DNA of 64,000 nucleotides from Chloroflexota bacterium (GTDB lineage Bacteria > Chloroflexota > Anaerolineae > B4-G1 > SLSP01). Below the pieces are notes generated by a model that was not told where the DNA came from, did not search any database, and worked only from the letters and a program-made list of their open reading frames with translations. This document shows positions 3,006 through 53,610 of the stretch, in pieces (within the stretch, counting starts at the first letter, position 1; the number at the start of each line of letters is the position of its first letter). The DNA lies in assembly GCA_036845725.1 (NCBI GenBank), contig DAIUDK010000001.1, positions 22,522 to 86,521 of the forward strand, in the 5' to 3' direction. The position numbers were made by a program, and so were the translations under genes.

Positions 3006-3668
3006 TCAATATCCGGTCAGCAGGCCGCCTTCGGTTGAATCGGTGAAGACGGCGCCCAACAGGCGCACGTGGACCCGCTCCAGCAGTTCTTTGGCCTGGG
3101 CAATGCGGTCGCGGCGTGTGTGTCCGGCACGCACGACCAGCAGCAGGCCATCCGTCCGCGCCGCCAGCACCGAAGCATCCACCGCGACCGTGACCGGCGG
3201 CGCATCGAACACCACCACGTCGGCGCGCGCCTTCAGATGCGCCAGCAATTGCTCCATCTTCTGCGCGCCGAGGATGTCGGCGGGATTGGGCGGCAGCGCG
3301 CCGCTCGGCAGCAGTTGCAAACCCGGCACGTCAGTCTCCACAAGCGCCAATGCCTCTTCCCCATCGTGACTCACCATGTAGCCTGTCAACCCCGGTTCCT
3401 GAGGCGCGTCAAAGCAGGTGTGCAGGCTGGGACGGCGCAGGTCGGCGTCCACCAAAATCACCCGCTGCCCGGATTGCGCCATAACAACCGCCAGGTTCAC
3501 CGCCACCTGTGACTTGCCATCGTCGGGGGACGGTGATGAGACTACCAGCGTCTCTAAAGGTTTGTCGAGGCTGGTAAACGTCAAATTCATCCGCAGAGCA
3601 CGGTAAGCTTCCGCCGCCGGCGAGCGCGGCTCAGCCAGGGTCACTACACTTGCTTTATCCATCGTCAC
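3006..3668 (-). CDS. BY-kinase-like P-loop ATPase (CapB/CpsD/YwqD family), polysaccharide co-polymerase partner
   Basis: Walker A is SSPSPDDGKS and Walker A' is VILVDADLRRP; a Walker B-like VVVFDAPP is present. RBS AAAGGAG lies 6 nt upstream. Sits immediately downstream of a Wzz/CapA-like gene, the classic capA-capB order. The C-terminus ...LLTGY has a single Tyr only. Confidence 0.8.
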   Translation of the reverse strand: MTMDKASVVTLAEPRSPAAEAYRALRMNLTFTSLDKPLETLVVSSPSPDDGKSQVAVNLAVVMAQSGQRVILVDADLRRPSLHTCFDAPQEPGLTGYMVSHDGEEALALVETDVPGLQLLPSGALPPNPADILGAQKMEQLLAHLKARADVVVFDAPPVTVAVDASVLAARTDGLLLVVRAGHTRRDRIAQAKELLERVHVRLLGAVFTDSTEGGLLTGY

Positions 3669-3794: not shown

Positions 3795-4448
3795 CTACTG
3801 TGCCGGCGGGATCACGCCGAGGACGGTCACGCCGGTCTCGCGCTCCAAGTCTTGCGGCAGATGCACAATCCCGGCTTCCAGCCATTCGAGCACGAACACG
3901 ATGACCACGCCGATGACGAGGCCAAAAATCCCCCCCGCCGCCACGTTGATCATCGTTTTGGGCCGCAACTGCCGGTAAGAGGCCGGATCGATGGCTTTGG
4001 CAAATACACGGTCCTCCTTGTTCTGAAGTGCGTTTTGCTCGTTGCGCCATTCCTGGAACAACTGTGCCCAGGTGTTGGCGATATTGTTGGCCTGCTCGCC
4101 GTCGTAGTCATCCACGTCGATCTTGATCACCATGCGAGCATCGTCGACGGCGAAGGTCACATCGCCCTTTAAATCTTTAGCGGTGCGCATCAAGGTCCGT
4201 CGGTCGATGACCTCCTGCGCATACTGCTCCGACCACATTGTCGCTGAGAAGTTATTCAGCAACAACTTGGCCGATTGCGCCAAGCCAAAGTCAGGCCGCG
4301 CGAGCTGGATTGAAACCTCAATACTGGAACGGTAGACCGGCGTCTGCACTTTACTGAAGACAAAGGCGCTCGCTGCAGCCACAACCGCCGCCAGCAGGAT
4401 GATCCATCCGCGGTAGCGAAGGATACGCACGTAGTCTTGAATTTTCAC
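3795..4448 (-). CDS. Wzz/CapA-like polysaccharide chain-length determinant (membrane modulator of the BY-kinase)
   Basis: GTG start at 4448 preceded by AGGAGTGAGCGA. Has an N-terminal TM segment (WIILLAAVVAAASAFVF), a periplasmic domain and a C-terminal TM segment (GGIFGLVIGVVIVFVLEWL). This is PCP2b/Wzz topology. The ORF-track extension upstream to 4691 is probably not translated. Confidence 0.7.
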   Translation of the reverse strand: MKIQDYVRILRYRGWIILLAAVVAAASAFVFSKVQTPVYRSSIEVSIQLARPDFGLAQSAKLLLNNFSATMWSEQYAQEVIDRRTLMRTAKDLKGDVTFAVDDARMVIKIDVDDYDGEQANNIANTWAQLFQEWRNEQNALQNKEDRVFAKAIDPASYRQLRPKTMINVAAGGIFGLVIGVVIVFVLEWLEAGIVHLPQDLERETGVTVLGVIPPAQ

Positions 4449-4519: not shown

Positions 4520-4828
4520 TCAAGAACTCTGACGACCGCGCAGTCGCGCGCGCACTTCCCGGCAATGTGGACAATCCACATCCGTGTACGGTCGCCCGCA
4601 TGTCTGGCAAACACGGGTTTGCATTGGACGACTCTCCTGCATCGGCAGTAAAATCATCGTCACATCTTCGTTTTCGTGACGCGACATCCACTCTTCCACG
4701 AGGATGTTACCTACCAGCCACCGCCCGCTGTCTGGATCGCGGCTCACGACGCCTTGCATAAACCGACCCTCCAGCGCATACGCCGCGTTGGTCAAATCCC
4801 GAATGCTTGCTTTACGATATGCTGTCAT
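4520..4828 (-). CDS. Small zinc-ribbon protein (CxxC...CxxC), function unknown
   Basis: 103 aa beginning at the internal ATG at 4828 (MTAYRK...) with RBS GGGAGG upstream. The C-terminus is ...VCQTCGRPYTDVDCPHCREV. Lies between the GT-C-like membrane protein gene and the Wzz gene on the same strand. Confidence 0.45.
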   Translation of the reverse strand: MTAYRKASIRDLTNAAYALEGRFMQGVVSRDPDSGRWLVGNILVEEWMSRHENEDVTMILLPMQESRPMQTRVCQTCGRPYTDVDCPHCREVRARLRGRQSS

Positions 4829-4952: not shown

Positions 4953-6728
4953 TTAGCGAGCACGCCACAGGATCATCTGCTCGGATGCAGGCATGGTTGG
5001 CGTCTGGCGGAAGAGATACCAGCGCGCCAGATCCTTGCATGCCAGCGGGAGTATAGATTGGCAGGCTGGAATGCGCGCAGTCCCACGGGTCAACGCGGTG
5101 AAAGCCATCCCTTCCCACGTCTGTACTGCTGTGTCAGGCGGGATCGCGTCAGGCGCAGCCACCACCGCCCCGGTGACATCCGCCGGCCAGAATTCGGCGA
5201 CGCGCAGGCGCGCAAAATCGCGCAGCGCCCAGCGCATCACCGCCGCCGTCGCCGCATCCCGCGCCACCACCGTGACCGGGAAGGCATCCCGCCGCTGCCC
5301 GCTCTGCACCGCCATCCGGTCTAGCATAGTGCGTAGCGCACGCAAGTCCGGCGAGACCGCTGCCGGCACTGCCGGTTCTGCGATAGAATCGGGACGCACG
5401 AACGCCAGTCCCCAGGCAAAACCCGCCTGTGTCACCAATAGGGCCAGCGTCAGCCCCAACATCGCGCCGCGCCACACCAGATGCAAGGGCATCTTCAAGG
5501 AGAACAACAGCGCGATCAGGGCTTGTAACGCCAGCAAGGTCACGCTACCGAGAAGCAAAACCAGGTTGACGTTATCGAATGCGCCTCCGAGGGCTGAGGT
5601 TCCAGTTCCATTTGCATGCCACGCCAATGCTAACCCCACCGGCTGCCAGAAGATAAAGCCCACCAGCCCGTGTAATGCCGTCCACTTTAGAACCGGACCG
5701 GCGGTGGCGCGGTTGGAGAGCGGCCATAGTAGCGCCTGCTGCACGCCGTACCCGGCGAACAATGTCAAGGGCAAAACGACCACCACCAAAGCCGAAGGTG
5801 TCGCGCCGGGACGCAGGCTCACCAGCAGCAGCCCGAAGACGCCCCACAGTGCCAACGCCAGGGGCAGAGAAGCCGTTTTCCTCACAGTGTAGGTGCGCAA
5901 CAACATCACAACCAACCCGAGCAGCACCAGCAGCAGCGTAACCGGCTCGTAGAGGAATAGAAGGACGACCGGCGGAAGCCCGGCGCGAGGCGCGCGCCAA
6001 GAGGTCAACCACGCCGCCAGTCCATCGGCGACACCGCTCCAGCCATTCCAACGCAGTCCCAAAGCAATTGTGATTAGCAGCGCGCTCAACAGTCCCCAGA
6101 GAGCAGGTCTGATCCACGCTCGCAAAGACATACCGTCGCGCAAGGAAACAGTCGGCGAGCTGAAAATCCAGCGGTAAATCACCCACGCCAGCGCCCCGGC
6201 GAGCAATCCGTCGTAGAATACGGAGCCGCTCGTCAACCCAATCGCCAGCCCGGCAACGACGAGCGCGGAGGAGCATCCTGCAGGCCACCCCTCCGCATCG
6301 CGCGCCAGCAGCGCCGTGAGCAGCAGCCCCGCGCCGAGCAAACCCAGGCTCGCGCCATCCACGCGCCGGGTCGCGAAGAGCGCCAATGGCGAGCAAAGCA
6401 GCAGTCCGGCCGCAACCAATGCGCCAACCTCGCCCAGACGTTTTCGCCAGAACCAGGGCAATCCCACCAGCGCCACGCCCGCCAGCGCGGGCAGCAGACG
6501 CGCCATCCCATCCCCGCCGCCGAAGAGCAGGAATAGCAATCCGTTGCCCACCAGCAGCAGCGGGCTTTCCACCCTACTGACCCACTCCGCGCCGCGCGCC
6601 GCATCCAAAGAGGCCAGCGCCGCCGTTGCCTCATCCGGTGCCAGCAGAACGCTGTTCAATGCCACCAGGCGTAACAACAGCGCCAAGACAATCATCGTTA
6701 CCCAAGCCCAACGCGCATATCGTTCCAT
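4953..6728 (-). CDS. Large polytopic membrane protein, GT-C-like (PMT/ArnT-type putative glycosyltransferase; COG4745-like)
   Basis: At least 13 predicted TM helices. The first extracytoplasmic loop carries a D-E motif (LLAPDEATAAL), typical of GT-C enzymes. Start ATG at 6728 with GAGGAAG upstream. An alternative start is the ATG at 6803, coupled to the upstream gene's stop. Confidence 0.5.
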   Translation of the reverse strand: MERYARWAWVTMIVLALLLRLVALNSVLLAPDEATAALASLDAARGAEWVSRVESPLLLVGNGLLFLLFGGGDGMARLLPALAGVALVGLPWFWRKRLGEVGALVAAGLLLCSPLALFATRRVDGASLGLLGAGLLLTALLARDAEGWPAGCSSALVVAGLAIGLTSGSVFYDGLLAGALAWVIYRWIFSSPTVSLRDGMSLRAWIRPALWGLLSALLITIALGLRWNGWSGVADGLAAWLTSWRAPRAGLPPVVLLFLYEPVTLLLVLLGLVVMLLRTYTVRKTASLPLALALWGVFGLLLVSLRPGATPSALVVVVLPLTLFAGYGVQQALLWPLSNRATAGPVLKWTALHGLVGFIFWQPVGLALAWHANGTGTSALGGAFDNVNLVLLLGSVTLLALQALIALLFSLKMPLHLVWRGAMLGLTLALLVTQAGFAWGLAFVRPDSIAEPAVPAAVSPDLRALRTMLDRMAVQSGQRRDAFPVTVVARDAATAAVMRWALRDFARLRVAEFWPADVTGAVVAAPDAIPPDTAVQTWEGMAFTALTRGTARIPACQSILPLACKDLARWYLFRQTPTMPASEQMILWRAR

Positions 6729-6804
6729 AGCTTCCTCAGTGGTTGTTACTCGTTGCTCAATACTGGTTACTGGGTGCTGGGATAATTCAGCTTTCCCCAC
6801 CATT

Positions 6805-7947
6805 CTATACCTGTCTACCGTCTGCCTCTTCCCCCGCCGTGCGGATATCCGCCTCTTGCGCCTCGATGCTTTCAACGAGTTTGAACTGGACAAGCGCCCG
6901 TGTGAGGTTGTGGCACGCGCGCTTTATCTTGTAGTAAACATTGCCTTCCAAATAGTCGGTGAAGAAGCGCAACGCCTGTTCCAGCGCGAGAAGGCGCACC
7001 GCGGCGTACAGGTATGTATAATCATCCACAGTATAGAACCCGTGCACGAGCGGCAAGTAGCCTTGCAAAATCGCCCGGCACAAGTCCATGTCGAAATATA
7101 CAGCGTCGATGTCCTCCGTCTCCTCGCCCAACGGATTACATCCGGAGCGCAGGCAATCGCCGATGTCGTATTGGACAAGCCCCGGCTTGATCGTGTCCAG
7201 GTCGATAAGGCCCACGGCCTGCCCGGTGACGTCATCAATCATCACGTTATCCACTTTGGGATCGCCGTGGGTCAGGCGCAGACGCAGCCTGCCCCGCGCC
7301 TGTGCGTCTTCCAACACGGGGATGATGTCCCGCCGCGCCGCGACAAAGCGCAGGCCGTATTCCACCTCTGGCGACCGGGCGAAGTCACCGCGCTCCACCA
7401 CCGCATCGTGGTACGCCAGATAGCGCGACGTGACATGATAGCCCGCGAGCGTGTCGTACAACCGTCCGGCGTCCAGATCGCTGATAAGGCTGTGGAAACG
7501 TCCCAGCGCATAGCCGACCTCGTGAGCATGGTATGCGTCCCGTATTTTGGGATACGTTCGCGCGCCCTCGATGAAGGTAAGCGCGCGCCAGAATCCGCCC
7601 TCCGTATCGAGCGCGTAATCGCGCCCATCCTGGGCTGAGACGATCTGCGGCGTCTCCCAACGACGTCCTGCCTTCGCCGTCTGCGGCAGCTCACCTTCCA
7701 CCACCATCCGTGCCGCCACATGCTCGCCGTACACGCGGATGTTGGACATAATCCATTCAGGTTGTTTGAACACCCGCCGGTTGATTTGCTGCAAGACGAA
7801 CCGCCGCCCCGATGCCGTTGTCACCAGATACGTGTCGTTGATGTTGCCCGCGCCGTATTCGCGGACGTCCGCAAGGGCGTCGGCGGGCAGGATGAAGTGG
7901 GCAGCCAGGGTAGAGATGTTTTCTTTGTTCGCCGTATCCGTTATCAT
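6805..7947 (-). CDS. Phosphotransferase-family kinase (APH/ChoK-like fold)
   Basis: Catalytic-loop motif LTHGDPKVDNVMIDD (HGD-x4-N) and downstream IDLDT (DxD) match the aminoglycoside phosphotransferase / sugar-kinase fold. The start is uncertain: ATG at 7947, or TTG at 8040. Confidence 0.65.
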   Translation of the reverse strand: MITDTANKENISTLAAHFILPADALADVREYGAGNINDTYLVTTASGRRFVLQQINRRVFKQPEWIMSNIRVYGEHVAARMVVEGELPQTAKAGRRWETPQIVSAQDGRDYALDTEGGFWRALTFIEGARTYPKIRDAYHAHEVGYALGRFHSLISDLDAGRLYDTLAGYHVTSRYLAYHDAVVERGDFARSPEVEYGLRFVAARRDIIPVLEDAQARGRLRLRLTHGDPKVDNVMIDDVTGQAVGLIDLDTIKPGLVQYDIGDCLRSGCNPLGEETEDIDAVYFDMDLCRAILQGYLPLVHGFYTVDDYTYLYAAVRLLALEQALRFFTDYLEGNVYYKIKRACHNLTRALVQFKLVESIEAQEADIRTAGEEADGRQV

Positions 7948-8095
7948 CCGTTCGGTTTTCGCACTCGCACGGGATTGTGATTGCACGCCGGTAATTCTAT
8001 CCCGAAAGGCAGGCTTTGCAACATTTGATTCGTAATCCAATAGAACTGGCCTGTGTGAGAATAAAAGTTATAATTCTTTCGGAGGATAAACTCAA

Positions 8096-8482
8096 ATGAA
8101 GAAAGTCATCGTGATGCTCATTGGAAGTGTAGGCGCAATCCTGCTGGGGCTGCCCTACATCTTCCATGCCTTCGGTCCAACCGAGGCAGAAGTGGTGTCG
8201 TGGGGCGAGGTTTCTCTGTACACCGGCATCGCCCTCACGCTGGTGGCTGTGGTCATCGGGCGCAGTGCGAATAAGCTTTCCCGAGGTGTCCTGGCGCTCG
8301 GTTACCTATTTTTGGCACTTCTGCAGGTGCTGCCAATTTACCTATGGTTTACCTTCCACGGCACGGGGATATCCGATGGCACACCGCCCAGTCTGTTTGT
8401 GGCGCACTGGGTCTACGCGATTCCGCACCTAGCGTTACTGATCGTCAGTCTCGTAGTGATTGCATCGATGTTCAAAGAGTAG
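8096..8482 (+). CDS. Small integral membrane protein (4 TM), hypothetical
   Basis: SD GGAGGA lies 8 nt upstream of the ATG. Four hydrophobic helices. Divergent from the kinase gene. Confidence 0.55.
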   Translation: MKKVIVMLIGSVGAILLGLPYIFHAFGPTEAEVVSWGEVSLYTGIALTLVAVVIGRSANKLSRGVLALGYLFLALLQVLPIYLWFTFHGTGISDGTPPSLFVAHWVYAIPHLALLIVSLVVIASMFKE

Positions 8483-8494
8483 TGCGAAACACCT

Positions 8495-11032
8495 TCACTG
8501 CCCAACGCTGTAAATCACCACATCTCCACCCTCGTACACCACTGGGAACATCGCGGTAAACTTATCCAGCCCTTCGGCGGGATAGCGCTCGCGTTCGACT
8601 TGGCCGATGTAAATGTAGGCGACGTTGTAGCGCGCTAGAATCGCCTGTGCTTCGGTGGGGTCGAGTGTGGTGAATAGCGTTTCCAGCTCGACCTCGCGAC
8701 GCCCAGGCTCATCGTAGTTGCCGCGCCATTGCCTTTGGTGGCCGCCCCAACCCAACATGGTCGGCAAGCCGGTTAACGCAGAGACGCGCCCCTCGTAGAT
8801 GTAGGCGCGATGTTGGTCGCCCGGCGCTTCGACGATGACCGGCGCGCCCTCCACGTTGGCATTGAGCCACCGAATCGCGGCATAGTCGGTCGGTCGAGAC
8901 GTCGCCAGCCACGCTGCGCCGTCCAGGGTCCACGGTGTGCCGTGTTCGTGTGCCCGCGCCGGAACGGCCAACACGGTGTAGAGCAAGCCCACAGCGATCA
9001 ACAGGCAGGAAAGTCCCACCGCCAGCGCCCGCCAGGGAAAGCACTCTCCGTTCCGGGCTTCATGTGGTTCCAACCAGCGCGCAATCTGCCACGCACCCGC
9101 CAGGCTCCACAAGATCCACGCCTGAAAGTAGAACTTAAAAATTGTGTTCATCCGCGTCATAAACACGTCTTTGAGGTACACGTACTCCGGCGCCAACGTG
9201 AGCAGCAGGCCGATGAGGACGAGGAGGAGGGGGAATTGGGAGTAGGGAGTAGAGAATAGGGAGTAAGGGGGAGGTGGAGATTTTGGATTGTGGATTGTGG
9301 ATTGTGGATCTGGGATTGTGGATTCAGGGCCAGGGGCTACAGACTCAGAACTGACCGCTGACGGCTGATCGCTGACCGCTGATCGCTTCAACAACGCCAA
9401 AACCACCGCCGCGACGCCAAGCGCGAGCGCGAGTCCTACCCAAGGACGCAGCCAGCGCGCAACGATGCCTTCGACGACCATCTCTGGTGCGATGGATAAT
9501 CCCTGGACCGGTTCGCCGCGCCAGACGCTCTGCAGATAAGGATACGCAGCGCCCGCGCCTACCAACAGGCCAAGCAACGCAATGGCGAGCACCAGCCCCA
9601 CGCCGCCGATCAACACCCACTGCCACGGCACACCCGCGTCACGCGCTGCGCCGGCGATCACACCGAGTAGCGGGATCAGCAGCGGGGCAAACATCACCAC
9701 GAACTGCGGCCAGTGCGTAGCGTTGAAGAGATTGGGCAGCACGCCCCCAGCTTGCGAGCGCAGCGCGTACCAGAACGGGAAATACAAAAACACGCTCAAC
9801 ACACCCAGGATAACCCCTTCAGGCAGCGTCCTCCACAGCGCATCAAAAAACCGCGTCCACATATGCCGGAAGGTGGACGCCCCGCCCGCCGAGCGCGCAT
9901 ATCGCGCCAACACGATCCCGCCCACCATCAACACCCAATAGATTGGAAAATCCCACGTGTTGAGAAAACCGAGCGCGCCCAAAGTGAGCGCGTAGCCTGC
10001 CAGCGGTGCAAGCCGCGCCCCCCAACCCTTGCTAAATTCGCCCTCCCGCAACGTCCGGTACAGGTTGAGCGTCAGCGCAACCGCCAGCAGCACAAAAGGC
10101 AGCGCCAAAACGTGCGGGTGCATATCGCCCAGGGTGAAACTGAACGCGGGGAACTCGTCGATGATCTCGATGCGGTCGCCCCAGGGTGCATAGTCGGTGA
10201 GGACGCGCGATCCTTGCCACCACCAGAAGAAGCGCGTGGGAATCCAGGAGAACGGCGGCTGTGGCGTGGTGTTGATATTGCGGATATCCAGCCATGTCCA
10301 AAATTCGGCGGACAGCAATCCACGCGCGTGCAGCACCTCGAGCAAACCGGCAGCGTTGCCGGTCAGCAAGAGCAGCAAAGGCGCGAACAACGCACGCAAC
10401 ACGCCACGTCGTTCCAGCAGATCGTAGACGATGCCGTAAGCGCCCACTGCCGCCAATGCGAACCACCCCGCGCACCCCAGGTTGAAGGCCACCGTCGCCG
10501 GGAGCGCCGACAACCGCGTGAGCATCCCCAACAGGAAATAGCCCAGATAATAATACGAAATTGCGTAGCCGGAAAGCCAGGGATCGTGCGGTGGAACCTG
10601 CGGCGCGCGCAAAACCGCATTGAGGAACGCGATCTCCATCCACTTTTCGCCGCCCGCCGTCTCCAACTGCGGCTGAGAGGCGCGCACCACCGTCCACAAC
10701 AGCAACGCGCCGAAGAAGAGCGCCTCTGTGGTGAGGATGAACACCCGCTGCTCCTGCAACCAGGGACGGATCTCCACCCGGTATCGCCGTAGTGCCCATA
10801 GGCCCACGGCGAATACAAGGCCCGCCGCGACGAGGATGGCGGACGTCGTGTTCTCCCACAAGTGTAGGATACCACCCCACCAAACCACCACGCCGGTCAG
10901 CAACAAGCCCAGCGCCTTTGCCGCCGCATAGCCCCGCGAGCGCAAACGCCGCAACCACACAAACGCTAGTGGCAATCCCGCCAGCGCGAAAACTTGCATC
11001 GTCAGATACCACGTGAGAAACGGTCCAAGCAT
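8495..11032 (-). CDS. DUF2298-family large membrane protein (Chlor_Arch_YYY / TIGR03662-like; predicted GT-C glycosyltransferase)
   Basis: About 845 aa and more than 14 TM helices. Hallmark segment FFWWWQGSRVLTDY...IDEFPAFSFTLGDMHPHVLALPF; C-terminal soluble domain ...TLFTTLDPTEAQAILARYNVAYIYIG. The ATG at 11032 has GGAG 7 nt upstream; the TTG at 11056 has no RBS. Confidence 0.7.
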   Translation of the reverse strand: MLGPFLTWYLTMQVFALAGLPLAFVWLRRLRSRGYAAAKALGLLLTGVVVWWGGILHLWENTTSAILVAAGLVFAVGLWALRRYRVEIRPWLQEQRVFILTTEALFFGALLLWTVVRASQPQLETAGGEKWMEIAFLNAVLRAPQVPPHDPWLSGYAISYYYLGYFLLGMLTRLSALPATVAFNLGCAGWFALAAVGAYGIVYDLLERRGVLRALFAPLLLLLTGNAAGLLEVLHARGLLSAEFWTWLDIRNINTTPQPPFSWIPTRFFWWWQGSRVLTDYAPWGDRIEIIDEFPAFSFTLGDMHPHVLALPFVLLAVALTLNLYRTLREGEFSKGWGARLAPLAGYALTLGALGFLNTWDFPIYWVLMVGGIVLARYARSAGGASTFRHMWTRFFDALWRTLPEGVILGVLSVFLYFPFWYALRSQAGGVLPNLFNATHWPQFVVMFAPLLIPLLGVIAGAARDAGVPWQWVLIGGVGLVLAIALLGLLVGAGAAYPYLQSVWRGEPVQGLSIAPEMVVEGIVARWLRPWVGLALALGVAAVVLALLKRSAVSDQPSAVSSESVAPGPESTIPDPQSTIHNPKSPPPPYSLFSTPYSQFPLLLVLIGLLLTLAPEYVYLKDVFMTRMNTIFKFYFQAWILWSLAGAWQIARWLEPHEARNGECFPWRALAVGLSCLLIAVGLLYTVLAVPARAHEHGTPWTLDGAAWLATSRPTDYAAIRWLNANVEGAPVIVEAPGDQHRAYIYEGRVSALTGLPTMLGWGGHQRQWRGNYDEPGRREVELETLFTTLDPTEAQAILARYNVAYIYIGQVERERYPAEGLDKFTAMFPVVYEGGDVVIYSVGQ

Positions 11033-11099
11033 AAAAACTCCAAAGAGAATGAGCAAATCAGTGAATCAGCAAGACCCCTTACTCCATACTCCTTACTTC

Positions 11100-11807
11100 C
11101 TACTCCACCGTTATCAACGGTGCCAGGTCCCTGTAGCGCGTCTCCCCAATGCCCTCGACTTCCTGCAAGTCTTCGACCCGTTCGAAAGGGCCATGAGCTT
11201 CGCGGTAGGCGATGATGCGCTGCGCCATTGCCGGGCCGATGTGCGGTAGTGTCTCCAATTCGACGGCAGAAGCCGTGTTGATGTTCAACAACGTGGTCGC
11301 GGAAGCTCCCCTCGCAGCCGAAACCACCTCGACTGCCGACTGTGGCGTGGGCGTACAACGAGGCACAATCACGTGTTGGTTGTCCACAAGCGATGCCGCC
11401 AGGTTGACGCTGTACAGGTCGGCATCGGCAGCCGCACCGCCAACAGCGTCCAACGCGTCGGCGAGCAAGCTATCCGCAGGCAGCGTCACAACACCGGGAT
11501 GCGCTACTGCGCCACTGACGTAGACTCGCAACGGCTGTGGCGTCACCGTAGCATCGACGATGCTACTCTCCACACATGCCACAGGAGCACACATCTCCCC
11601 CCAATACGGTGGTGGGGTAAGCACACTACTGGGCTGCGCCTGCTCCCGCATTATGGCTGCAACAATCGCCCCGCCAACAAACAGGCATATGAAAGCAAGG
11701 ACAACACCATAGATGCGATACTGTTTTCGCACCTGAGCCTGCAGCTGCTCACGGATCTCCGCACGAAGTTCATCAACATCAATCAGCGTAGAAGGTACAG
11801 CGTTCAT
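11100..11807 (-). CDS. comEA: ComEA-like competence protein (SLBB domain plus tandem helix-hairpin-helix DNA-binding domain)
   Basis: C-terminus INTASAVELETLPHIGPAMAQRIIAYREAHGPFERVEDLQEVEGIGETRYRDL is a canonical ComEA HhH domain. Has an N-terminal TM anchor. Confidence 0.8.
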   Translation of the reverse strand: MNAVPSTLIDVDELRAEIREQLQAQVRKQYRIYGVVLAFICLFVGGAIVAAIMREQAQPSSVLTPPPYWGEMCAPVACVESSIVDATVTPQPLRVYVSGAVAHPGVVTLPADSLLADALDAVGGAAADADLYSVNLAASLVDNQHVIVPRCTPTPQSAVEVVSAARGASATTLLNINTASAVELETLPHIGPAMAQRIIAYREAHGPFERVEDLQEVEGIGETRYRDLAPLITVE

Positions 11808-11828
11808 CGACCACCAGCCCGCCCGTCT

Positions 11829-12914
11829 TCAGGCCGATTCAGGCTCCGGCATTTCCGGCGGGGAGGCCTCGGGAGATGCAGATTTGGCAGCACGGCGGCG
11901 AAGCAGCCGGCGGGGTGCCAGACGGCGCATCTGTTGGTACAGGCCACGCAGTTCCGGTCCCTTGATCGCGCGACCAGCCTCGAAGTAACGGCGCGCGGCT
12001 TGCCCGATACCCCACGTGCTAACTGCCGAAATCGCCGCCGAAACGATCCAGCCCAGGCCAGGGACGAGTTTAGCTGCCTGCGATCCCAGATAACGCGAGA
12101 GAAGACTGCCCGCCATCGTCGTCAACAGCTCGCGCGCGTGTGAGACGTTCATCGATTCGCCATACGCCGCCGCGATGCGCAGCACCATCCGCGTCTGCGA
12201 AGCCAACAGGATGGGGATATCCAGCCCGGGAACCGGTTGCAGCGAGATCGCCGCGTTCATCCATGCGGTGCGCCGCACAATGCGGTTGACGATATGCACA
12301 CGCACATCGGGGAGCGCTCGCGCCATCGCCACGGCAACTGCCGGCTGTGCGTTCAGAATCGCGGGCAATAGCCCGTCCACAATGCCCATCCCCGTCTGCG
12401 CCGAGATCGGTATGGGGCGCACACCGAGCAGTTTCTCGGCGTCCTCCAGAATCCACGGCACATCCTTCTTCACCAGATCGGCCTTGTTCAAAGCGATGAC
12501 CACCGGACGTTGCAAGTCGCGCAGCGTCATATAGAGGTCGTGGTCGCTCTGGCGGACACCGGCTGCCGCATCCAACAGCAACAAAACCAAATCCGCGTCC
12601 GCCGTCGCCTCGCGGGCGATCTCGGCACGGTCAACGCCCCACACCTCGCCAAAACCGGGAGTATCTACAAGCAGAAACGGACCAATTGGATGTTCGACGA
12701 CGCCCTTCGTCGTGCCAGGTACGGCGCTCACTGCCGATATATTCTGTCCGTGTAAGCGATTGAAAAGCGTCGACTTACCGCTATTAACTGGGCCGACGAT
12801 AGCCAGCCGGGCCAGCGTCTCCTGCGCCACTTCATAATTGAGCGCGTGCCAATCCAACGACCGCAGCAGCGTATGAACGTCATCCATCTTTTTGGGCAGC
12901 AGCAAAATGCTCAT
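11829..12914 (-). CDS. GTP-binding protein with a C-terminal DUF697 membrane-associated domain (YcjF/YeeP-like)
   Basis: G1 is GPVNSGKST, G3 is DTPG and G4 is NKAD. The start ATG at 12914 is preceded by GGAG-AAAA. Confidence 0.7.
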   Translation of the reverse strand: MSILLLPKKMDDVHTLLRSLDWHALNYEVAQETLARLAIVGPVNSGKSTLFNRLHGQNISAVSAVPGTTKGVVEHPIGPFLLVDTPGFGEVWGVDRAEIAREATADADLVLLLLDAAAGVRQSDHDLYMTLRDLQRPVVIALNKADLVKKDVPWILEDAEKLLGVRPIPISAQTGMGIVDGLLPAILNAQPAVAVAMARALPDVRVHIVNRIVRRTAWMNAAISLQPVPGLDIPILLASQTRMVLRIAAAYGESMNVSHARELLTTMAGSLLSRYLGSQAAKLVPGLGWIVSAAISAVSTWGIGQAARRYFEAGRAIKGPELRGLYQQMRRLAPRRLLRRRAAKSASPEASPPEMPEPESA

Positions 12915-12930
12915 TTTTCTCCATACATGT

Positions 12931-12958
12931 TCAGGTGGAACGCACGTGCGTTCCACCT
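12931..12958 (-). terminator. Perfect 14-bp hairpin between the histidine kinase stop and the GTPase start
   Basis: caggtggaacgcac|gtgcgttccacctg is a perfect inverted repeat with no U-tract. Could act as a terminator or an RNA-processing element. Confidence 0.4.
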
Positions 12959-12967
12959 GGATTCAAT

Positions 12968-15082
12968 CTAGGATAGGGAACCGGCTAACGGCAGCGTGAA
13001 GATAAATGTCGTTCCATCCTGCGAGGTATTCGACACCCAAATACGTTCGCCGTGAGCCTCCAATACCATCCGGCAGAAGGCCAACCCCAGGCCGCTCCCA
13101 TGCTCACTCTGCTGTCCCGCCACAAATTTGGTGAATAGATTGCGACGAATTTCTGGGGGAATGCCCGGCCCGGTATCGGAAACGGAGATGCGCAGCTTAT
13201 CGGGCATTTCAGGTTCCACCTCAGCCCGCACCAACACTTCCCCACCCGGCGGGGTAAATTTGAACGCATTGCCCATCAGGTTCTGCAGCACGCGCTCGAC
13301 CAATTCCCTATCGGCCCGCACCAACGGCACATCCTCGGGTACAGCATTGACAAAAGTCAACTCGTGTTGGTTGATCGCCAACTTTTGCAGTTCTACCGAA
13401 TCGCGCACGACATCCGAGAAGCGGAAAACGACCGGTTTTAACGGCATCTGCCCGGTCTCCAGACGGCTGATATCCAGAATCGCGTTGACCAGCTTGACCA
13501 TGCGTTCAGTGCTGAGCAAGGCGATGTTGATGATACGCCGCTGCCCCTCCATCAATGACTCGCCGACCGCACGCGAAAGCAGGGTGAGTGCCGCGTGGAT
13601 ACCGGTCAGCGGGTTGCGCAGGTCGTGGACCATCGTGTGTGTCAAATCGTCACGGAATTGGTCCAAAAGCCGCGCGTCGGTGACATCGCGCACCATGAAA
13701 AGCCGTCCCAAAGGCTCTGCATCCCCCCGCACGGGCCAACTAACCCATTGGATGATTCGCAGCCCGACTTTCACTTCACCATCGTGCGGCTGGTCGTCGC
13801 CATCGCGGATGCGGCGCATCTCACCGAGAACGACCCTGACCACGTGCCGCGCATGGTCGCGCAGCGTGTACACAATATCCCACAACGAACGATCGACCCA
13901 GGTTTCTGGCTCACCGAGCAGGCCTAGGAAGCGCAACGCCGGCCGGTTGACCACCAACAGACGCAGATCGGTCCCCAGCAATATGATCCCATCGCGGCTG
14001 GATTGGACCACCGTACGCAGGCGCTCACGCTCTTCCTCGATTGTCCGGAAAAGCTCCGCTTGCTGTATCGCAGCTGTGATTTGTGCCGCAATCGCCATCA
14101 GTAGATCGACGTCCTGCTGGGTAAAATCCGGCTGATCGGAACGATTAACCGCCAGCAGCACCCCACAGGACTGGTCTTGAACCAACAACGGGGCCACGGC
14201 GATCGATCCACCCATTTCGGGCGTATACCACGGCTGCGTTTCTCCCGCCCACCCGCGCGCTTCCATCGCCGTTTTGGTTAGGTAAAGGGGACGCCCATCC
14301 CGCAGCACCTCGCCCACCACCCCTTGCGATATATCGTCGAAGTCTAATAGTGGCAAGATAGGCGGAGTGGCCCCGCCCACAAGTAAAGCACAGGTCTGCC
14401 GATTCGCGGGATTGCCGCGCACCAACCAGACGAGATTGGCGCGCAGCGCGTTGGCGATGCTGTTCAGAACCGCCGGCAGAACATCGTCTAAGTAGCGTGA
14501 AGCGATCAGGGCGCGAGTGACGAAATACAACGTTTCCGTCTTGCGCGTCGTCGCCCAAAACCGATCTTCGGTTTGTCGGCGCTCGAACGCCTCCTGCCGC
14601 AGCGAAATGTAAAGCTCCGTATTCTGCAAAGCCGCCGACAGGACTTCGCTCAACGACGATGCCAACAGCCGCGCGTCCACATCGAAAGCATCGGGCACAT
14701 CACTCACAACGTAAAGCAACAGGTGAACCCATTCGCCCCGTTTGAGTGGAACGAGCACGGCACTGGCCTGCTCGATTTCAAGGGGAAACACCAGCGCAGC
14801 GCCAGGAATAGCAGGGGCATAGTGGAAATATTTGGTCTGAAGTACGGTAACGACCAACGGTTGATCGGTAGGCGCGACGGCGTCGAGCGGTGGGGCCAGC
14901 GCTCCGGTCGAGGCCGTGACGCGCACCACACCCGATTCGTGATCCGGCGATAGCAAAGCAAGACCCGCCCAACCAGTCAACTGGGCTATAAAGGCGAGGC
15001 TTTCCTGCATCAAACGTTCCGTGCGTTGGAAACGACGCAAGAACTGCAAGACCTCATTGAGAATCGCCAAATGGTTGTTCAC
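12968..15082 (-). CDS. Sensor histidine kinase with GAF/PAS sensory domains
   Basis: H-box HTMVHDLRNPLTGI. N/G1/G2 boxes are LQNLMGNAFKFT, VSDTGPGI and GSGLGLAFCR. GTG start with GAGGAG upstream. Confidence 0.85.
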   Translation of the reverse strand: MNNHLAILNEVLQFLRRFQRTERLMQESLAFIAQLTGWAGLALLSPDHESGVVRVTASTGALAPPLDAVAPTDQPLVVTVLQTKYFHYAPAIPGAALVFPLEIEQASAVLVPLKRGEWVHLLLYVVSDVPDAFDVDARLLASSLSEVLSAALQNTELYISLRQEAFERRQTEDRFWATTRKTETLYFVTRALIASRYLDDVLPAVLNSIANALRANLVWLVRGNPANRQTCALLVGGATPPILPLLDFDDISQGVVGEVLRDGRPLYLTKTAMEARGWAGETQPWYTPEMGGSIAVAPLLVQDQSCGVLLAVNRSDQPDFTQQDVDLLMAIAAQITAAIQQAELFRTIEEERERLRTVVQSSRDGIILLGTDLRLLVVNRPALRFLGLLGEPETWVDRSLWDIVYTLRDHARHVVRVVLGEMRRIRDGDDQPHDGEVKVGLRIIQWVSWPVRGDAEPLGRLFMVRDVTDARLLDQFRDDLTHTMVHDLRNPLTGIHAALTLLSRAVGESLMEGQRRIINIALLSTERMVKLVNAILDISRLETGQMPLKPVVFRFSDVVRDSVELQKLAINQHELTFVNAVPEDVPLVRADRELVERVLQNLMGNAFKFTPPGGEVLVRAEVEPEMPDKLRISVSDTGPGIPPEIRRNLFTKFVAGQQSEHGSGLGLAFCRMVLEAHGERIWVSNTSQDGTTFIFTLPLAGSLS

Positions 15083-47117: not shown

Positions 47118-47501
47118 ATGCACTGGATCACCTCATTGGCTTGTCTTGGCGTTTTTACGCTAACTGCTGTAGGGCGTACGCTGGAAAGCGGCGTTTGGGA
47201 AGGCCACGTGACCTTTGGCCGGGGAGGCAGCAGCTTCAACCCATGCGGATCGAAAGAGACCTGGTGGGTGAAAAGCAAAGGATTCAGCAAAACCGCCGAG
47301 AAGCTCCAGGAGGACTATAACAGCATCGCGCAAAAACCCTACGAGCCGGTCTACGTCCGTGTAAGCGGCGACGTCAGCCGCAAAGGGCAGTACGGGCGAC
47401 TCGGCTCATACCAACGCGTGCTCTATATTGAAGAAGTGCTCGAAATCCGCCCCAAGAAAGATGATGATTGCAAGTCGGTAAAACGAATGAGCGAAATCTA
47501 A
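47118..47501 (+). CDS. Hypothetical small secreted protein / lipoprotein
   Basis: Signal peptide MHWITSLACLGVFTLTA. SD AAGGAG. No recognisable motif. Confidence 0.45.
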   Translation: MHWITSLACLGVFTLTAVGRTLESGVWEGHVTFGRGGSSFNPCGSKETWWVKSKGFSKTAEKLQEDYNSIAQKPYEPVYVRVSGDVSRKGQYGRLGSYQRVLYIEEVLEIRPKKDDDCKSVKRMSEI

Positions 47502-49942
47502 GGCAAAAACACAGTCCCTGCTGATTTCAGAACCAATGGCAGATACAGCCTGTACGACGTCACAGTCACAATCCACTGGATACTTCCCTCGCTGCAGGAA
47601 TTCGTGGCCGTCATGATGACGGTGTACGGGAGTGTTATGGTCGCTACCGGGAAGGTATACGTAACGACCTCGCCATAAACGAGCGGACTTCTATCCCCGA
47701 AATCCCACGCGAAATCAACCGGCGGCGTGCCCTCCGCCACCGTGCCGGTAAATGTAGCCGTCTGCCCAACAGCCAGATAGGACGGCGTGTAACTGAAAAA
47801 CGGCTCGACCACCGGAAAACACTCTGCGGCAATCGCGACAGTCGTCAAATCGCTGTAGGCCGAAACGCCTGTCCCAGATGCCGTCACCCGCACCGTATCC
47901 GTGAACCCCGTAAAAGCATTCCAGGGGACCGTGACCAGTGTTGTGACCGGTGTGCTCGCTTGCGGCGCTAATGTCACCTGCGTGGGAGTCAGCGTCGTCG
48001 CCAACGCCGCACCGGAGAACGCCAGACTATAGTCATCGGTGATATTGCCGATGTTGGTCAATGTGAGCGTGTACACCAGCGTTTTTCCCGCGTCGCCGTT
48101 AGCACTTATTTCCGGCGGCCAAAGCTCCAGGCCGTACACCGCATCCGCCGTCGTGCGGAGCGTGGCGCGCGCGCTGCGGGAGGGGTCGCCTGCCGACGTC
48201 GCCGTCACCGTGACCCTGTCCGATGCCCCGGACAATGCATCTGTGGGGATGGTGACCGTCACAGGCAGTGGCGCGGTCGCCCCGGCAGACAACGGCCCGA
48301 TTCGGGTCGGTGCGGTCGTCTGCCAGCCGGCACTGGTCAATGTGACGGTGAAGTTGTCCGCCGTCGTCCCGGTATTCGTGACGCGAAAGGCAACACTCAC
48401 CGCCTGGCCCGGCGCGCCGTGCTGTTCAACCGTCGCCGGCGCAATGGCGACGCCGTATTCGACCGAGGCGAGCGCCGCATCCACTGCCGATTTGATGTCC
48501 AGCCGCCCGTAACCGTAGACGTTGTTGGGCCAGCCGCTGCTGCTACACGCGGTCGAGTTGATGTGGAACGCATTGTCATTCAGCAGTTGCTCCGTTGCAT
48601 CGATCTGGTTCTTAAGCACCGGAACCGCCGACCACAACAGCGCCACGGCCCCGGCGACGTGCGGCGCGGCCATCGAGGTGCCATTCTTGGCGCCGTAGCC
48701 GCCGTTGGGAATACACGAGCGGACACTCGTCCCTGGCGCGGCAAGGTCGGGCTTGCGGCGGTTGCTGCCGTCCACCATCACCGGGCCGCGACTGCTCGAT
48801 GACCAGATCGTATCTGTGCCGGTGCTCAACGCCCCCACCGTGTACGCGGCGGCGTAAATCGCGGGAGGATCGTTCACCGTCGAACAATTCGAACCGGCGT
48901 TCCCTGCCGAGACGACGGTCATAATGCCCGCCGCGCGCTGCGCTTCCATCGCGTCTTGCAGCGTGCTCCACGAGCAGCCTTCGCCGCTAGGGCACGTCCA
49001 CGAGTTGTTGGTCACGTCGGGCGCTTTGCTCGGATCGCCCTGGGCAGACGTCCCACCCACCGGATACGGCGCGAGGAAGAACTCGAAACATTCCAGATAT
49101 GTGGCCGGTGTCCCGTACCCCACGTTCATATTGCGACAGCCGATCCACTGCGCGCCGGGCGCCATCCCGATCTGGTTCATCCCACCGTCATCGCCGACAG
49201 CCGTGCCCATCGTGTGCGTGCCGTGGCCGTAGTCGTCGCATGGCACAAACGAGTCTGCGCCGCACGAGCCGCCGCCGCTGTGAATGGCATCGTGCCAGTT
49301 GTAATCGTGGTTGGCCGTTGTCCCGTTCCAGCCGCGATAGTGTGGCTTCAGTGCCGGATGCGTCCAGTCGTAGCCCGTATCCTGCCCACCAACGACCACG
49401 CCCTGCCCGGTAAAGTCCATCGCCCAGACTTCCGGTGCGCGCACGTAGGTGATGTTCAGTTCGATAGCGGTAGGGGCGGCGGCGAGCAGCGCGTCGAGCG
49501 GGCGCGCGGGCTGCGGCAGCACGTTCTGGATGCGCGGGTTGCCCTCGATGCGCGCCACGTCGGGCCGTGCAGCCAACGCTCGCACCAGGTCGGCATCTCC
49601 TTTCACCCAGATCAGGTTGACGATGTAGTAGGCGCGATGTTCCACGCCGCGCGCGGCAAGCCACTTGAGCAGCGGCCTTTGCGAGGTCTGTGCGGTGCGC
49701 CACAGCGTCTCGTAGACGTAACGGCCCTTTTCCGCTTTCATTTGCAGTCGTGCCGCGCCGCTGAGATCCGCCTGCGCCGCCAGCACGACGAGGAACTCGG
49801 CCTCTGCGCCGCCGGCGGTGTGCGCGAGAACCCACGGGGCGATTTTATCGAGAGCCGGAGCAGCGCGCAGTGCGGTGGAAGGCGCACCGAACAGGCCGAG
49901 CAACAGCACAACAAACAAAACGACGCGGTAGAGTCGATTCAT
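47498..49942 (-). CDS. S8-family subtilisin-like serine peptidase with C-terminal Ig-like/PKD domains and a conserved YLPLV C-terminal tail
   Basis: Catalytic triad context GGQDTGYDWTHPAL (Asp), HGTHTMGTAVGDDG (His) and GTSMAAPHVAGAVALLWSA (Ser). Signal peptide from MNRLYRVVLFVV. PKD signature WDFGD. Ends ...SYRLYLPLVLKSAGTVFLP. Confidence 0.85.
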   Translation of the reverse strand: MNRLYRVVLFVVLLLGLFGAPSTALRAAPALDKIAPWVLAHTAGGAEAEFLVVLAAQADLSGAARLQMKAEKGRYVYETLWRTAQTSQRPLLKWLAARGVEHRAYYIVNLIWVKGDADLVRALAARPDVARIEGNPRIQNVLPQPARPLDALLAAAPTAIELNITYVRAPEVWAMDFTGQGVVVGGQDTGYDWTHPALKPHYRGWNGTTANHDYNWHDAIHSGGGSCGADSFVPCDDYGHGTHTMGTAVGDDGGMNQIGMAPGAQWIGCRNMNVGYGTPATYLECFEFFLAPYPVGGTSAQGDPSKAPDVTNNSWTCPSGEGCSWSTLQDAMEAQRAAGIMTVVSAGNAGSNCSTVNDPPAIYAAAYTVGALSTGTDTIWSSSSRGPVMVDGSNRRKPDLAAPGTSVRSCIPNGGYGAKNGTSMAAPHVAGAVALLWSAVPVLKNQIDATEQLLNDNAFHINSTACSSSGWPNNVYGYGRLDIKSAVDAALASVEYGVAIAPATVEQHGAPGQAVSVAFRVTNTGTTADNFTVTLTSAGWQTTAPTRIGPLSAGATAPLPVTVTIPTDALSGASDRVTVTATSAGDPSRSARATLRTTADAVYGLELWPPEISANGDAGKTLVYTLTLTNIGNITDDYSLAFSGAALATTLTPTQVTLAPQASTPVTTLVTVPWNAFTGFTDTVRVTASGTGVSAYSDLTTVAIAAECFPVVEPFFSYTPSYLAVGQTATFTGTVAEGTPPVDFAWDFGDRSPLVYGEVVTYTFPVATITLPYTVIMTATNSCSEGSIQWIVTVTSYRLYLPLVLKSAGTVFLP

Positions 49943-50066
49943 AGTTTCACCCTCAAAAAGTTTCATGTCAACGCTCAAGGCAGGTCACAATCCACGGTCT
50001 CCGCAGCCCCCCCCTTTAATCCCCCCCTCTAAGGGGAAACTAAAGGGGGGAATCAGTCCTTGCACA

Positions 50067-53000
50067 CTATTGGCCGCGCAAAATCACGGGCAAATAGACG
50101 TAGACAGTCTTTTGCTCAAGCGCGGTCGTCAGAACAGCTTGCGCCTGCACGGTTGGCGATTCAAGAATAGTGGCGGTTACGGTCAATATGTGCGGTGCTG
50201 CATCCAAGAGTGTTCCTGACTCAGGGATCGTCACTGTGACCGTCACGGGGGCAATGCCACCAACTGGCAAAGAAACCTGCGTTGGAACGATCTGCACCGG
50301 CCAGATACTCGACGGCGTAGTTAAGGCAACCGTTATAGGCAACGTCCCGACGTTGGTCACGGTCAGGTAATGAGACGCGGTTGCCCCAGGCAGCCCTGAC
50401 CGGTATGATACCGGCGGCGACAGTTCCAGGTCATAGGGAGCGGCCACCTCCGATGTTAGCACCAGCTCCGCCGGTGCCGTTATGCCCGGCCAGGAGGCAG
50501 TGACGCGGCTGGCGAACACGTTCAGATCGGTCCCGGTCGGGATCAGCACCGTCCAGGTGAAGGTCTGCACGGCCTCAGAATCCGACGCCAGATCACGCCA
50601 GATCAACGTTCCCAGCGCAACACTCGTGGCTGCCGGCGAATGAGACAATATCGTCACCGACGAGGGTAATGTGAGGGTCAAAACGCCATCTGTCATCGGC
50701 AACAGGCTATCGTTGAGCACCGTCAGAGTATAGGTGAGGGGAATACCAGGCCACACGCGAGCCGGCTGGGGTGTCAGCGCCAGCTCCAGGCGGGCCGGGG
50801 GCTGCGACAGACCCAACCATGCCAACCCGTCACGCAGGATAGTGGTCCGTTGCGCGCTATCGGCAACACCCTCCAGGCCAAACGCAAGGTAGATGAGACG
50901 GTGCGCGCCGTCGTCCACGGCCAACCCTGCCGCGCCGGTGGTATAGGTGAAGACCGGCGTCGCCGCCACATTATAAGGGGCAATCACGTCTGGGCTGGTT
51001 TGGTTGTCGGCCCCGCTTCCACCGGTCAACGTGACGTTCAGTCCGCTGTAGAACGAGAGGCCGACGGTTTCTGTCTCCCCGGCATTGTCCTGAATGAACG
51101 CAGCGTGCAAAACGTCGCGGAAGAAAGCGCCGTTGTCGTTCTTGATGTCCATCCCGATGTTCTGCCCGGTCACGAAGAGCCGCCCGCCGGCGTCGAGGTA
51201 AGTGAGCAGGGCGGTCTGCTCAGCGCGATTCAGGCTGTTGAGCGCATCGTCGCCGGTGAACCAGAACACACCCGTATAAGCCGCCAGCGTCTGGGGCGAC
51301 AACGGACCTTGCGTTGCTATCGTCCACGTCGCGTACGGAATTCTCAGTGCATCCAACGCCGGCAGGAGATAAGTCTCGTAGGACGCGCCGGCGTCGTCAT
51401 CCACGACCAGGAGCGCTGGCTTGGGATGCAGGCGCAAGGTGTGCGTCACCCACGCCCCCTCGGTGATGGTGACAGAGTAGGAACGCGGCCAATGCTCTGC
51501 CGCCGTCGCCGTGAACGTGTACACGTCAACCGGCAGCTCCAATGTCAGGGTCGGCGCTGCAGTCCAGGCCGTCCCCAATCCTTCCAGGGCGACGGTCGCC
51601 GTCAACGGTTGCGCCGATCCCAACTCGGCTACTATCAGAGAAAGCGTTCCCCAGGGCAACCGTTCCAGAGCAAAATCCTGCACAGAGGTCTCGCCGATAG
51701 CCATAGAAACGGTCGCCATGCTGCTTGCGTAGCCCAGCAGCGAAGCGGTCACGGTATACGTTCCGGCGTACAAAGGCAGGGTGTACTGTCCGGTGACATC
51801 GGTCTGGGTGACGTACTGGGCCGTGCCGCTGTCTGCTGTAACCTGCGCGCCGGATAGCGGAGTCGCCGTTCCCGAGACAACGACGGTACCGGTCAAAGCG
51901 CTGTCGTCCACCAACTGCACGAAGGCGGCAGAGATCGGGCCCCAGAAGCCATCGGCGTCCCGGCCTCGCACATAGACGAGATGTCGCCCGCGCGCCATGC
52001 CGGTCGTATCGATCTGAACCTGGGCGGCCTCTTCCGTTTCGTTGAAAGCGCCATCCAGCGCGAACATCGGAATGGGCGTACCGCCATCCCAGGGAGGTGT
52101 CCCCACGTAGATCTCCGCCGCCACAACTGCCTGGCCGGTATTCTTGCTATCGGCGTCATTGAGCGTCGCCTGCACGGTGATGGGCTGCCCAATCAACACC
52201 GCATCCGGCATCGCTGTGACGGTTTGGACGTGAGGGCCAAAGGACGTGAGATAGGGCGTCCGCGCGACTTTGGCGGCATAGAGGAGCGTGTCAACGTTCG
52301 GTTGGATCAAGGCATCGTAGCGCGAACAAGGTGGGTAAAATTCGTCGCTGCTCGAACCAATCTCAAAGGTGTAGGCCGCGACGCCCAATTCGCCGTAAGC
52401 CCAGTCATCGGTAGCGCCGCTAGTAGGATATAACGCGCTGGATTGCTGTGGGGTGAATCCGTTGAAGGACGCCATCCGCCGGCCGAGCATCTGCAATTGC
52501 GTGCCGTTCGGCGCGGGGGTGGAGGTATCTCCCCAAGGCCAAAGCACCAGATTACTGTAACTGTGCAGGGTGATGAAAACGCCGGTTGCATCGTCCGGCG
52601 CAGGGTCGGTGTCGTTGGGGCCGCGTTGATCGGGAAAAAGGGTAGCGACGAAGCTTTCCAATCGAATCGTTTCAATTTCAGAAGCCGCCGACGGCCCGCG
52701 ATAAGTTTCATCACAGGGGTTGGTGCTGGTGCCCGGCCCACCCCAATGGAAGCTGGAATTGCGGTTGAGGTCCACACCGTAGTCAGTGGAACTGCACGAT
52801 CCGTAAGGGTGGGTATTTTTGCGCCAGTAGGCCCAGGGTTGGCCCGGCTCGTTTTTTACGTGGCCGTCGGGATTGGCGCTGGTGAGAACGTAGATCAAGT
52901 GCTCGTCCAGCAACCAGGTCACGTCCGGGTCAACGTTGTAGTTCTCCAGCAAATACTGCATGAAGACCAACGCCGTCTCCGGGGTGATCAATTCGCGTCC

Positions 53001-53492: not shown

Positions 53493-53562
53493 GGGATCCT
53501 CCAGAAAAGTGATGGGTAATGGGTAATGAGTTGGATAATGGGTCTTGAGTTTTGGGTTTTGC

Positions 53563-53597: not shown

Positions 53598-53610
53598 GGT
53601 TGAGAGCACG

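Follow-up and report, generated by a model that had tools for sequence, protein, structure and literature searches.

The stretch of DNA analysed here (the window) comprises 64,000 nucleotides (nt) of contig DAIUDK010000001.1 (GCA_036845725.1) from an SLSP01 member of the Anaerolineae, and coordinates without a locus prefix are those of the window throughout. Its minus strand encodes two large polytopic membrane proteins, a DUF2298 protein of 845 amino acids (aa; 8495–11032) and a 591-aa protein (4953–6728) that we refer to as the 4953 protein, its homologues beside DUF2298 genes being called partners. We propose that the two are a functionally coupled GT-C-fold pair that glycosylates an acceptor in the cell envelope, outside the cytoplasm, from polyprenyl-phosphate-linked donors, and put the probability of this reading at about 0.6. 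Both families are already catalogued, and several hundred instances exist of which the window is one; what goes beyond the database labels is the predicted GT-C fold of both proteins, the AglB-like C-terminal domain of the DUF2298 protein, the degenerate motif of the partner, the recurrent gene fusions and a NahK-like kinase in the same locus.

Conservation of the gene pair

A scan of one genome per species found at least 597 stretches encoding a relative of the DUF2298 protein, and the best 80 of these were analysed. All 80 are from Chloroflexota (Anaerolineae, Thermoflexales, Caldilineae, Ardenticatenaceae and Roseilinea). The loci were translated in six frames and searched with profiles built here; 74 of the 80 have downstream DNA. 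A partner homologue follows the DUF2298 gene on the same strand within 300 nt in 58 of the 74 and lies within 6 kilobases (kb) in nine more (67 in total; a NahK-like gene stands between in six of the nine), and seven loci have no partner homologue. These counts agree with an earlier note on the window, made by a model from the letters alone, which had stated that the two families (given there as TIGR03662 and TIGR03663) are frequently adjacent in Chloroflexota. The note had named a lack of conserved neighbourhood in related genomes as counting against its proposal, and the counts show the reverse. Co-occurrence of TIGR03662 and TIGR03663 is, we presume, already noted in the TIGRFAMs descriptions.

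Look-ups made from the partner side (loci L001–L008) show the same linkage, down to 28% identity with the 4953 protein. The gene order is DUF2298, a toxin–antitoxin pair, kinase and partner in L001 and L002 (partner 77% identical to that of the window), and DUF2298, glutaminyl-tRNA synthetase (GlnRS), kinase and partner in L005 (44%). The partner gene follows the DUF2298 gene directly, without the kinase, in L006 (40%, 25-nt gap) and L007 (37%, 10-nt gap), and the two genes overlap by 4 nt in L008 (28%). L003 and L004 (60%) have kinase, partner, zinc-ribbon protein, Wzz and BY-kinase (bacterial tyrosine kinase), with no DUF2298 gene within 10 kb. The inserts at the DUF2298–kinase junction of the sister genomes are an MNT/HepT toxin–antitoxin pair at L001:8169–8811 and the GlnRS gene at L005:7112–8854.

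Gene fusions provide a second kind of linkage. A gene of 1,500–1,850 aa lies directly upstream of the stand-alone DUF2298 gene in 38 of the 56 loci with enough upstream DNA, its product having an N-terminal module ahead of a complete DUF2298 module. The N-terminal module matched PMT_2 above the Pfam cut-off in four of the five fusions tested and in L008; it should be noted that the A1 profile built here misses this module in the giant fusions and that it is the Pfam PMT_2 model that detects it. Because the pair is kept throughout the phylum and is also found fused in nature, there is good evidence that the DUF2298 protein and its partner are functionally, and probably physically, coupled. The construction of the cell envelope is poorly understood in Chloroflexota, which abound in sediments, bioreactors and hot springs; two to four GT-C-fold proteins kept so widely as a cassette probably make a core glycoconjugate of this envelope.

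Examples of the fusion genes are L008:2468–7279 and L025:5489–10777, with others among loci L009–L088. A single open reading frame (ORF) with two DUF2298 modules is present in L082, and in both L085 and L088 two giant genes follow one another. Many of loci L022–L088 carry a second PMT_2-like gene of about 1,000–1,300 aa downstream of the partner (for example L025:15312–18536 and L070:16562–20500), with NHL repeats in L008. In distant Anaerolineales (L033, L035, L036, L041, L046, L049, L052–L055, L065, L071 and L086) a gene recurs 2–5 kb downstream of the partner whose product, a sensor histidine kinase about 1,100 aa long, is a relative of the GAF-HisKA protein of the window (12968–15082).

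Predicted folds and motifs

The ORF of the DUF2298 protein spans 8495–11056 (minus strand) with a TTG at 11056, the called start being the ATG at 11032, and the exact 845-aa protein is present in public collections. The hallmark FFWWWQG...IDEFPAFSFTLGDMHPH, from which the earlier note had recognized the family, is present together with SYYYLGY, and the assignment holds in profile searches: PF10060 is matched at 6.5e-112 (375.4 bits, cut-off 27.8) and TIGR03662 at 4.3e-158 (528.2 bits, cut-off 300.25). The protein is clearly a member of DUF2298/TIGR03662 ('Chlor_Arch_YYY'), matched over its full length above both curated cut-offs and falling in the same size class of about 850 aa; no difference was seen at the level of the family, which is one without a characterized member. 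The YYYxG motif, which we take to be the one given in the TIGRFAMs description of TIGR03662, reads ISYYYLGY at residues 166–173. In an alignment of 49 DUF2298 sequences, S167, Y168, Y169, Y170, L171, G172 and Y173 are all invariant, as are E137, K138, E141, D158, D288, D300-E301, D311, H313 and H315. Charge distribution read by the positive-inside rule, together with the model described below, suggests that E137, K138 and the other residues of this second set lie in outward-facing loops, the candidate first outward loop containing E137, E141 and D158.

There was no sequence match to the DUF2298 protein in the PDB even at E 1. An AlphaFold2 model built from the 49-homologue alignment (pLDDT [predicted local distance difference test] 84.7; pTM [predicted template modelling score] 0.89) has as its best matches among solved structures only GT-C glycosyltransferases, and is like the archaeal oligosaccharyltransferase AfAglB both as a whole and in its C-terminal globular domain. 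It differs from the GT66 oligosaccharyltransferases AglB, STT3 and PglB in having no significant sequence similarity to them, in lacking the WWDYG, DK and MI motifs (the strand corresponding to the WWDYG position reads VIVEAPGD) and, apparently, in having three extra N-terminal helices. A link in sequence between the C-terminal domain and the oligosaccharyltransferases was sought by a single-sequence search, which returned only a chance match to beta-amylase, and with a 20-sequence profile, which gave 3vu0 at E 0.077 amid chance matches to triosephosphate isomerase. As neither search gave anything significant, the likeness to AglB that we claim for this domain is a structural one.

The 4953 protein is encoded by a minus-strand ORF at 4953–6893, the probable start being at 6728 (591 aa) or 6695 (580 aa). 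It is polytopic and has the acidic pair that the earlier note had placed in the first loop, Asp32-Glu33 within LLAPDEA after the first helix. The family assigned to it, TIGR03663, was right only approximately, whereas TIGR03662 was correct for the DUF2298 protein: the score is 70.8–71.4 bits (E 1e-19) against a curated cut-off of 126.25, in an alignment that spans model positions 5–405 of 435, and there is no match to any Pfam family including PMT and PMT_2. All 45 of its aligned relatives match TIGR03663 (best E 1.6e-36), seven match PMT_2 and two match PMT, and a profile of the partner family collects 1,595 representatives at E <= 1e-30 from a library clustered at 50% identity. Judged by its sequence the 4953 protein is related to Agl23/TIGR03663 but divergent. 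It shares with that family homology over nearly the whole model, co-occurrence with TIGR03662, an acidic residue after the first transmembrane (TM) helix and two conserved Arg residues; its identity to the GT-C_A enzymes ArnT and PMT (GT83 and GT39) is 9–15%. None of the 38 proteins found in a search with the canonical TIGR03663-type relative P0072 is named as archaeal or as Agl23.

Like the DUF2298 protein, the 4953 protein had no sequence match in the PDB even at E 1, and the best solved-structure matches of its AlphaFold2 model (pLDDT 91.1, pTM 0.91; 45-homologue alignment) were all GT-C glycosyltransferases. Both models are confident and predict a GT-C fold with a polytopic N-terminal module and a long first outward loop; that of the 4953 protein also has a C-terminal alpha/beta domain. 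The GT-C-like nature proposed for both proteins in the earlier note is thus upheld in the models, and the 4953 protein, with this predicted fold and its relation to TIGR03663, does not belong to an unrelated transporter family, the outcome that the note had named as counting against its proposal.

The motifs of the partner were compared in an alignment of DUF2298-adjacent partners from 66 loci. An invariant DE dipeptide and an HGP tripeptide near the N-terminus are presumably the features given for TIGR03663 in its TIGRFAMs description. In the partners only the Glu after helix 1 is invariant (E33 in the window protein), the preceding residue being D, A, S, E, V, P, G, T, Y, L, H or others; HGP is replaced by SP or QP and two Arg residues are kept (R77 and R121). 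Longer PMT_2-NHL paralogues in the same cassettes, about 1,050 aa long in many loci, retain HDES, HGP and SRYIR. As only the Glu of DE is kept and HGP is lost, while the paralogues have the canonical motifs, the partner may lack transferase activity altogether. The description of these families as mannosyltransferases, which the earlier note repeated, is a database label only: the partner family lacks the canonical Asp of DE and HGP, and the named TIGR03663 member reportedly acts as a flippase (PMC11182771). For purposes of annotation the label has no basis.

Proposed function and alternatives

In the reading that we prefer the substrates of the pair would be sugars or glycans carried on polyprenyl phosphate, met on the outside of the cytoplasmic membrane, with an envelope protein or polysaccharide as the putative acceptor. 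The two proteins probably form a complex. Within it the DUF2298 protein would be the likelier transferase, because many invariant Asp, Glu and His residues lie in its predicted outward loops and because of its AglB-like C-terminal domain, and the 4953 protein would be either a second transferase or a subunit that flips or presents the lipid-linked donor.

Several observations weigh against this reading. The structures of both large proteins are predictions, and the likeness of the DUF2298 C-terminal domain to AglB is structural only, with a profile E value of 0.077 and no WWDYG. The partner family keeps only the Glu of DE and lacks HGP, unlike the paralogues in the same cassettes. A convergent gene separates the DUF2298 and partner genes in the window, where they appear to belong to different transcription units, and L003 and L004 have the partner with no DUF2298 gene in the surrounding 10 kb. 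No GT2 polyprenyl-phosphate sugar synthase, Wzx or Wzy is encoded within the 64-kb window. In the literature searched DUF2298 is named in two papers, neither of them functional, there is no experiment on any DUF2298 protein, and the TIGR03662/TIGR03663 and COG identifiers gave nothing relevant.

The first alternative, which we regard as somewhat unlikely, divides the work between the two proteins: the Agl23-like partner, not itself a transferase, would flip a lipid-linked glycan and the DUF2298 protein would transfer it en bloc in the manner of AglB, PglB and PglL, Wzz and the BY-kinase having first set the length of the lipid-linked polymer. TIGR03663 carries the NCBIfam name 'flippase activity-associated protein Agl23'. 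The Agl23 protein of Haloarcula hispanica (HhAgl23) has been proposed as a dolichol-phosphate-hexose flippase, and the purified protein translocated Man5GlcNAc2-PP-dolichol (M5GN2-PP-Dol) in liposomes and rescued a yeast rft1 deletion (PMC11182771). However, that protein is haloarchaeal and the 4953 protein is from a bacterium (Anaerolineae), in whose family the Asp of DE is unconserved and HGP is changed to SP or QP; as the 4953 protein scores about 71 bits against the TIGR03663 cut-off of 126, to give it the activity of Agl23 is an extrapolation. The degenerate motif itself would fit a flippase, and the family keeps R77 and R121, which could bind phosphate, but the invariant Glu33 is preceded by Asp32 in the window protein, and catalysis is possible. 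Similarly, the DUF2298 model is like AfAglB in the whole chain and in the C-terminal globular domain, which would fit a transfer en bloc, yet WWDYG is absent and nothing in its sequence ties the protein to the oligosaccharyltransferases.

The furthest-reaching form of this idea is that the DUF2298 protein is an unrecognized oligosaccharyltransferase-like enzyme fed by a GT-C-fold, Agl23-like partner turned flippase, the two being a phylum-wide system of Chloroflexota (possibly also archaeal) that moves preassembled lipid-linked glycans to envelope proteins or polymers, with the PMT_2::DUF2298 fusions as its single-chain version; we consider this unlikely. If the partner were a GT-C protein turned flippase, this would bear on which proteins flip lipid-linked oligosaccharides (Rft1 or others), and if the DUF2298 protein were oligosaccharyltransferase-like, the known range of bacterial protein glycosylation would be broadened.

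It is quite improbable that the two genes are independent in this genome. On that view the 4953 protein would serve the assembly of an exopolysaccharide or capsule together with the kinase, zinc-ribbon protein, Wzz and BY-kinase (decorating it like ArnT/PMT-type enzymes, for example, or acting as a ligase or polymerase), the DUF2298 protein would belong with the GTPase–ComEA unit upstream of it, and their proximity would be inherited synteny. A convergent gene in the window and a toxin–antitoxin pair or GlnRS in sister genomes do part DUF2298 from the rest, L003 and L004 keep the set from NahK to BY-kinase with no DUF2298 nearby, and across the clade DUF2298 remains joined to GTPase-DUF697 and ComEA on the upstream side, but the direct adjacency throughout the phylum, the gene overlaps of a few bases and the PMT_2::DUF2298 fusions point to a functional link, and in L006, L007 and L057, of the same clade, DUF2298 abuts the partner.

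Additions in the clade and neighbouring genes

The minus-strand order in the window is GTPase-DUF697 (11829–12956), ComEA (SLBB-HhH, ComEA-like; 11100–11807), DUF2298, kinase (6805–7947), the 4953 gene, zinc-ribbon protein (4520–4828), Wzz (3795–4448) and BY-kinase (3006–3668), with an ORF of 128 aa on the plus strand (8096–8482) between DUF2298 and the kinase; a cytidylate-kinase-like gene, convergent with that of the BY-kinase, comes next after the set. In the earlier note the two large proteins were said to bracket the kinase, the zinc-ribbon protein and the Wzz/BY-kinase pair. This is not the arrangement found: only the kinase and the 128-aa ORF, which had gone unmentioned, lie between the large genes, and the genes for the zinc-ribbon protein, Wzz and BY-kinase are downstream of the 4953 gene, beyond the interval that the note gave (4953–11032). 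All three do exist as described there.

The 128-aa ORF is convergent with the DUF2298 gene and divergent from that of the kinase, has a perfect GGAGGA Shine–Dalgarno sequence 9 nt 5' of its ATG and encodes four hydrophobic segments, predicted to be TM helices; an identical protein is called on 20 public contigs. It has no Pfam or NCBIfam match even at E 10, is missing from this position in the sister loci and is outside the conserved module. A GtrA-type flippase was considered for it and dropped, there being no Pfam match even at that threshold. As this convergent gene stands between them, DUF2298 is probably not co-transcribed with the 4953 gene in the window; a promoter-like site is present at 8021–7994, ahead of the kinase start, and DUF2298 and the set from kinase to BY-kinase are most likely separate transcription units.

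The ORF of the kinase spans 6805–8040 (minus strand), and from the ATG at 7947 encodes about 380 aa. The APH-like fold and the HGDPKVDN motif claimed in the earlier note are both found (PF01636 [APH], 2.8e-20), and the protein aligns over its full length with the N-acetylhexosamine (HexNAc) 1-kinase NahK (LnpB) of Bifidobacterium longum (PDB 4ocj/4wh1; E 4e-56, 35% identity over 347 residues), kinase residues 36–400 corresponding to NahK 22–368. The catalytic HxDxKxxN loop reads THGDPKVDN in the kinase and THNDTKLNN in NahK, and the metal motif IDLDTI (the IDLDT/DLD site) is identical in the two. They differ in an insertion of about 15 residues around residues 100–120 of the kinase and in their context, which is an envelope-glycan locus here and a galacto-N-biose/lacto-N-biose (GNB/LNB) catabolic cluster for NahK. 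NahK phosphorylates free N-acetylglucosamine (GlcNAc) or N-acetylgalactosamine (GalNAc) at C1 (PMC8106489). As the kinase is a homologue with the catalytic motifs and NahK acts on the free sugar, we read it as a putative NahK-type anomeric HexNAc 1-kinase of cytoplasmic sugar salvage, not a kinase of lipid intermediates; of the two kinds of substrate suggested in the earlier note, a sugar would be retained and a lipid-linked intermediate given up. The annotation of this APH-fold gene would be corrected to match.

The remaining members of the set are small. The zinc-ribbon protein (102 aa, predicted to be cytoplasmic) has a C-terminal CxxC...CPxC motif whose four Cys are all invariant when it is aligned with its small-ORF orthologues from L001, L003, L005 and L006; it has only a weak DZR match, and all 35 members of its cluster are named 'hypothetical'. 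Wzz (about 217 aa; a Wzz/CpsC-type polysaccharide co-polymerase) matches PF02706 (26.7 bits, cut-off 25.5) and TIGR01006 (6e-20) and has a TM segment at each end; its orthologues in sister loci are 217–223 aa long. The BY-kinase (220 aa; a CpsD-type tyrosine autokinase ATPase) matches TIGR01007 (2e-47; 161.4 bits, cut-off 108.05) and has the Walker motifs of such kinases, with SPSPDDGKS, VDADLRRP and VVFDAPP in its sequence. Its C-terminus, ...STEGGLLTGY, has a single terminal Tyr in place of the usual tyrosine cluster.

Only in the clade with partners 44–100% identical to that of the window does a NahK-like gene directly precede the partner gene. Wzz and BY-kinase follow the partner in nine of the 12 distinct clade loci with downstream DNA, and the set made up of NahK, partner, zinc-ribbon protein, Wzz and BY-kinase remains intact even when DUF2298 is no longer close by, as in L003. 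The kinase and the Wzz/BY-kinase pair are additions of one Anaerolineae clade. The connection of the two large proteins with a kinase and a chain-length system, as drawn in the earlier note, is retained for the clade of the window and lies outside the phylum-wide module, so that the Wzz/BY-kinase genes should be annotated as a clade-specific appendix rather than as part of the core. In this clade the NahK-like kinase would salvage GlcNAc or GalNAc through HexNAc-1-P to UDP-HexNAc, and Wzz and the BY-kinase would control polymer length. The addition of kinase, zinc-ribbon protein and Wzz/BY-kinase around the partner gene suggests that the product of the clade is a HexNAc-containing envelope polymer of controlled length.

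Large ORFs at 44–64 kb of the window were considered as a second GT-C cassette, which was ruled out as their products are UvrA, peptidases of the S8 and M14 (carboxypeptidase) families and surface proteins with Ig repeats. Genes for very large secreted proteins follow one another at 47498–63984 (minus strand), encoding the S8 peptidase, with PKD/Ig domains, the M14 carboxypeptidase, which is 1,180 aa long, and Ig-repeat proteins with lengths of 1,808 aa and >1,595 aa. Nothing ties these proteins to the module, and it is possible that they are envelope glycoprotein substrates. The GTPase with a DUF697 membrane domain and the ComEA-like SLBB-HhH protein lie directly upstream of DUF2298 across the clade (11100–12956, minus strand, in the window, and in L001, L005–L007, L011, L015, L017, L019 and L057). 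On the other side of the locus, a conserved plus-strand block at 58–2936, convergent with the BY-kinase gene and found also in L001–L006, L013 and L057, encodes a GT4 glycosyltransferase, a TPR protein, a Pro/Thr-rich protein of 391 aa without a family and a Cytidylate_kin2-family protein, and may belong to the same envelope locus.

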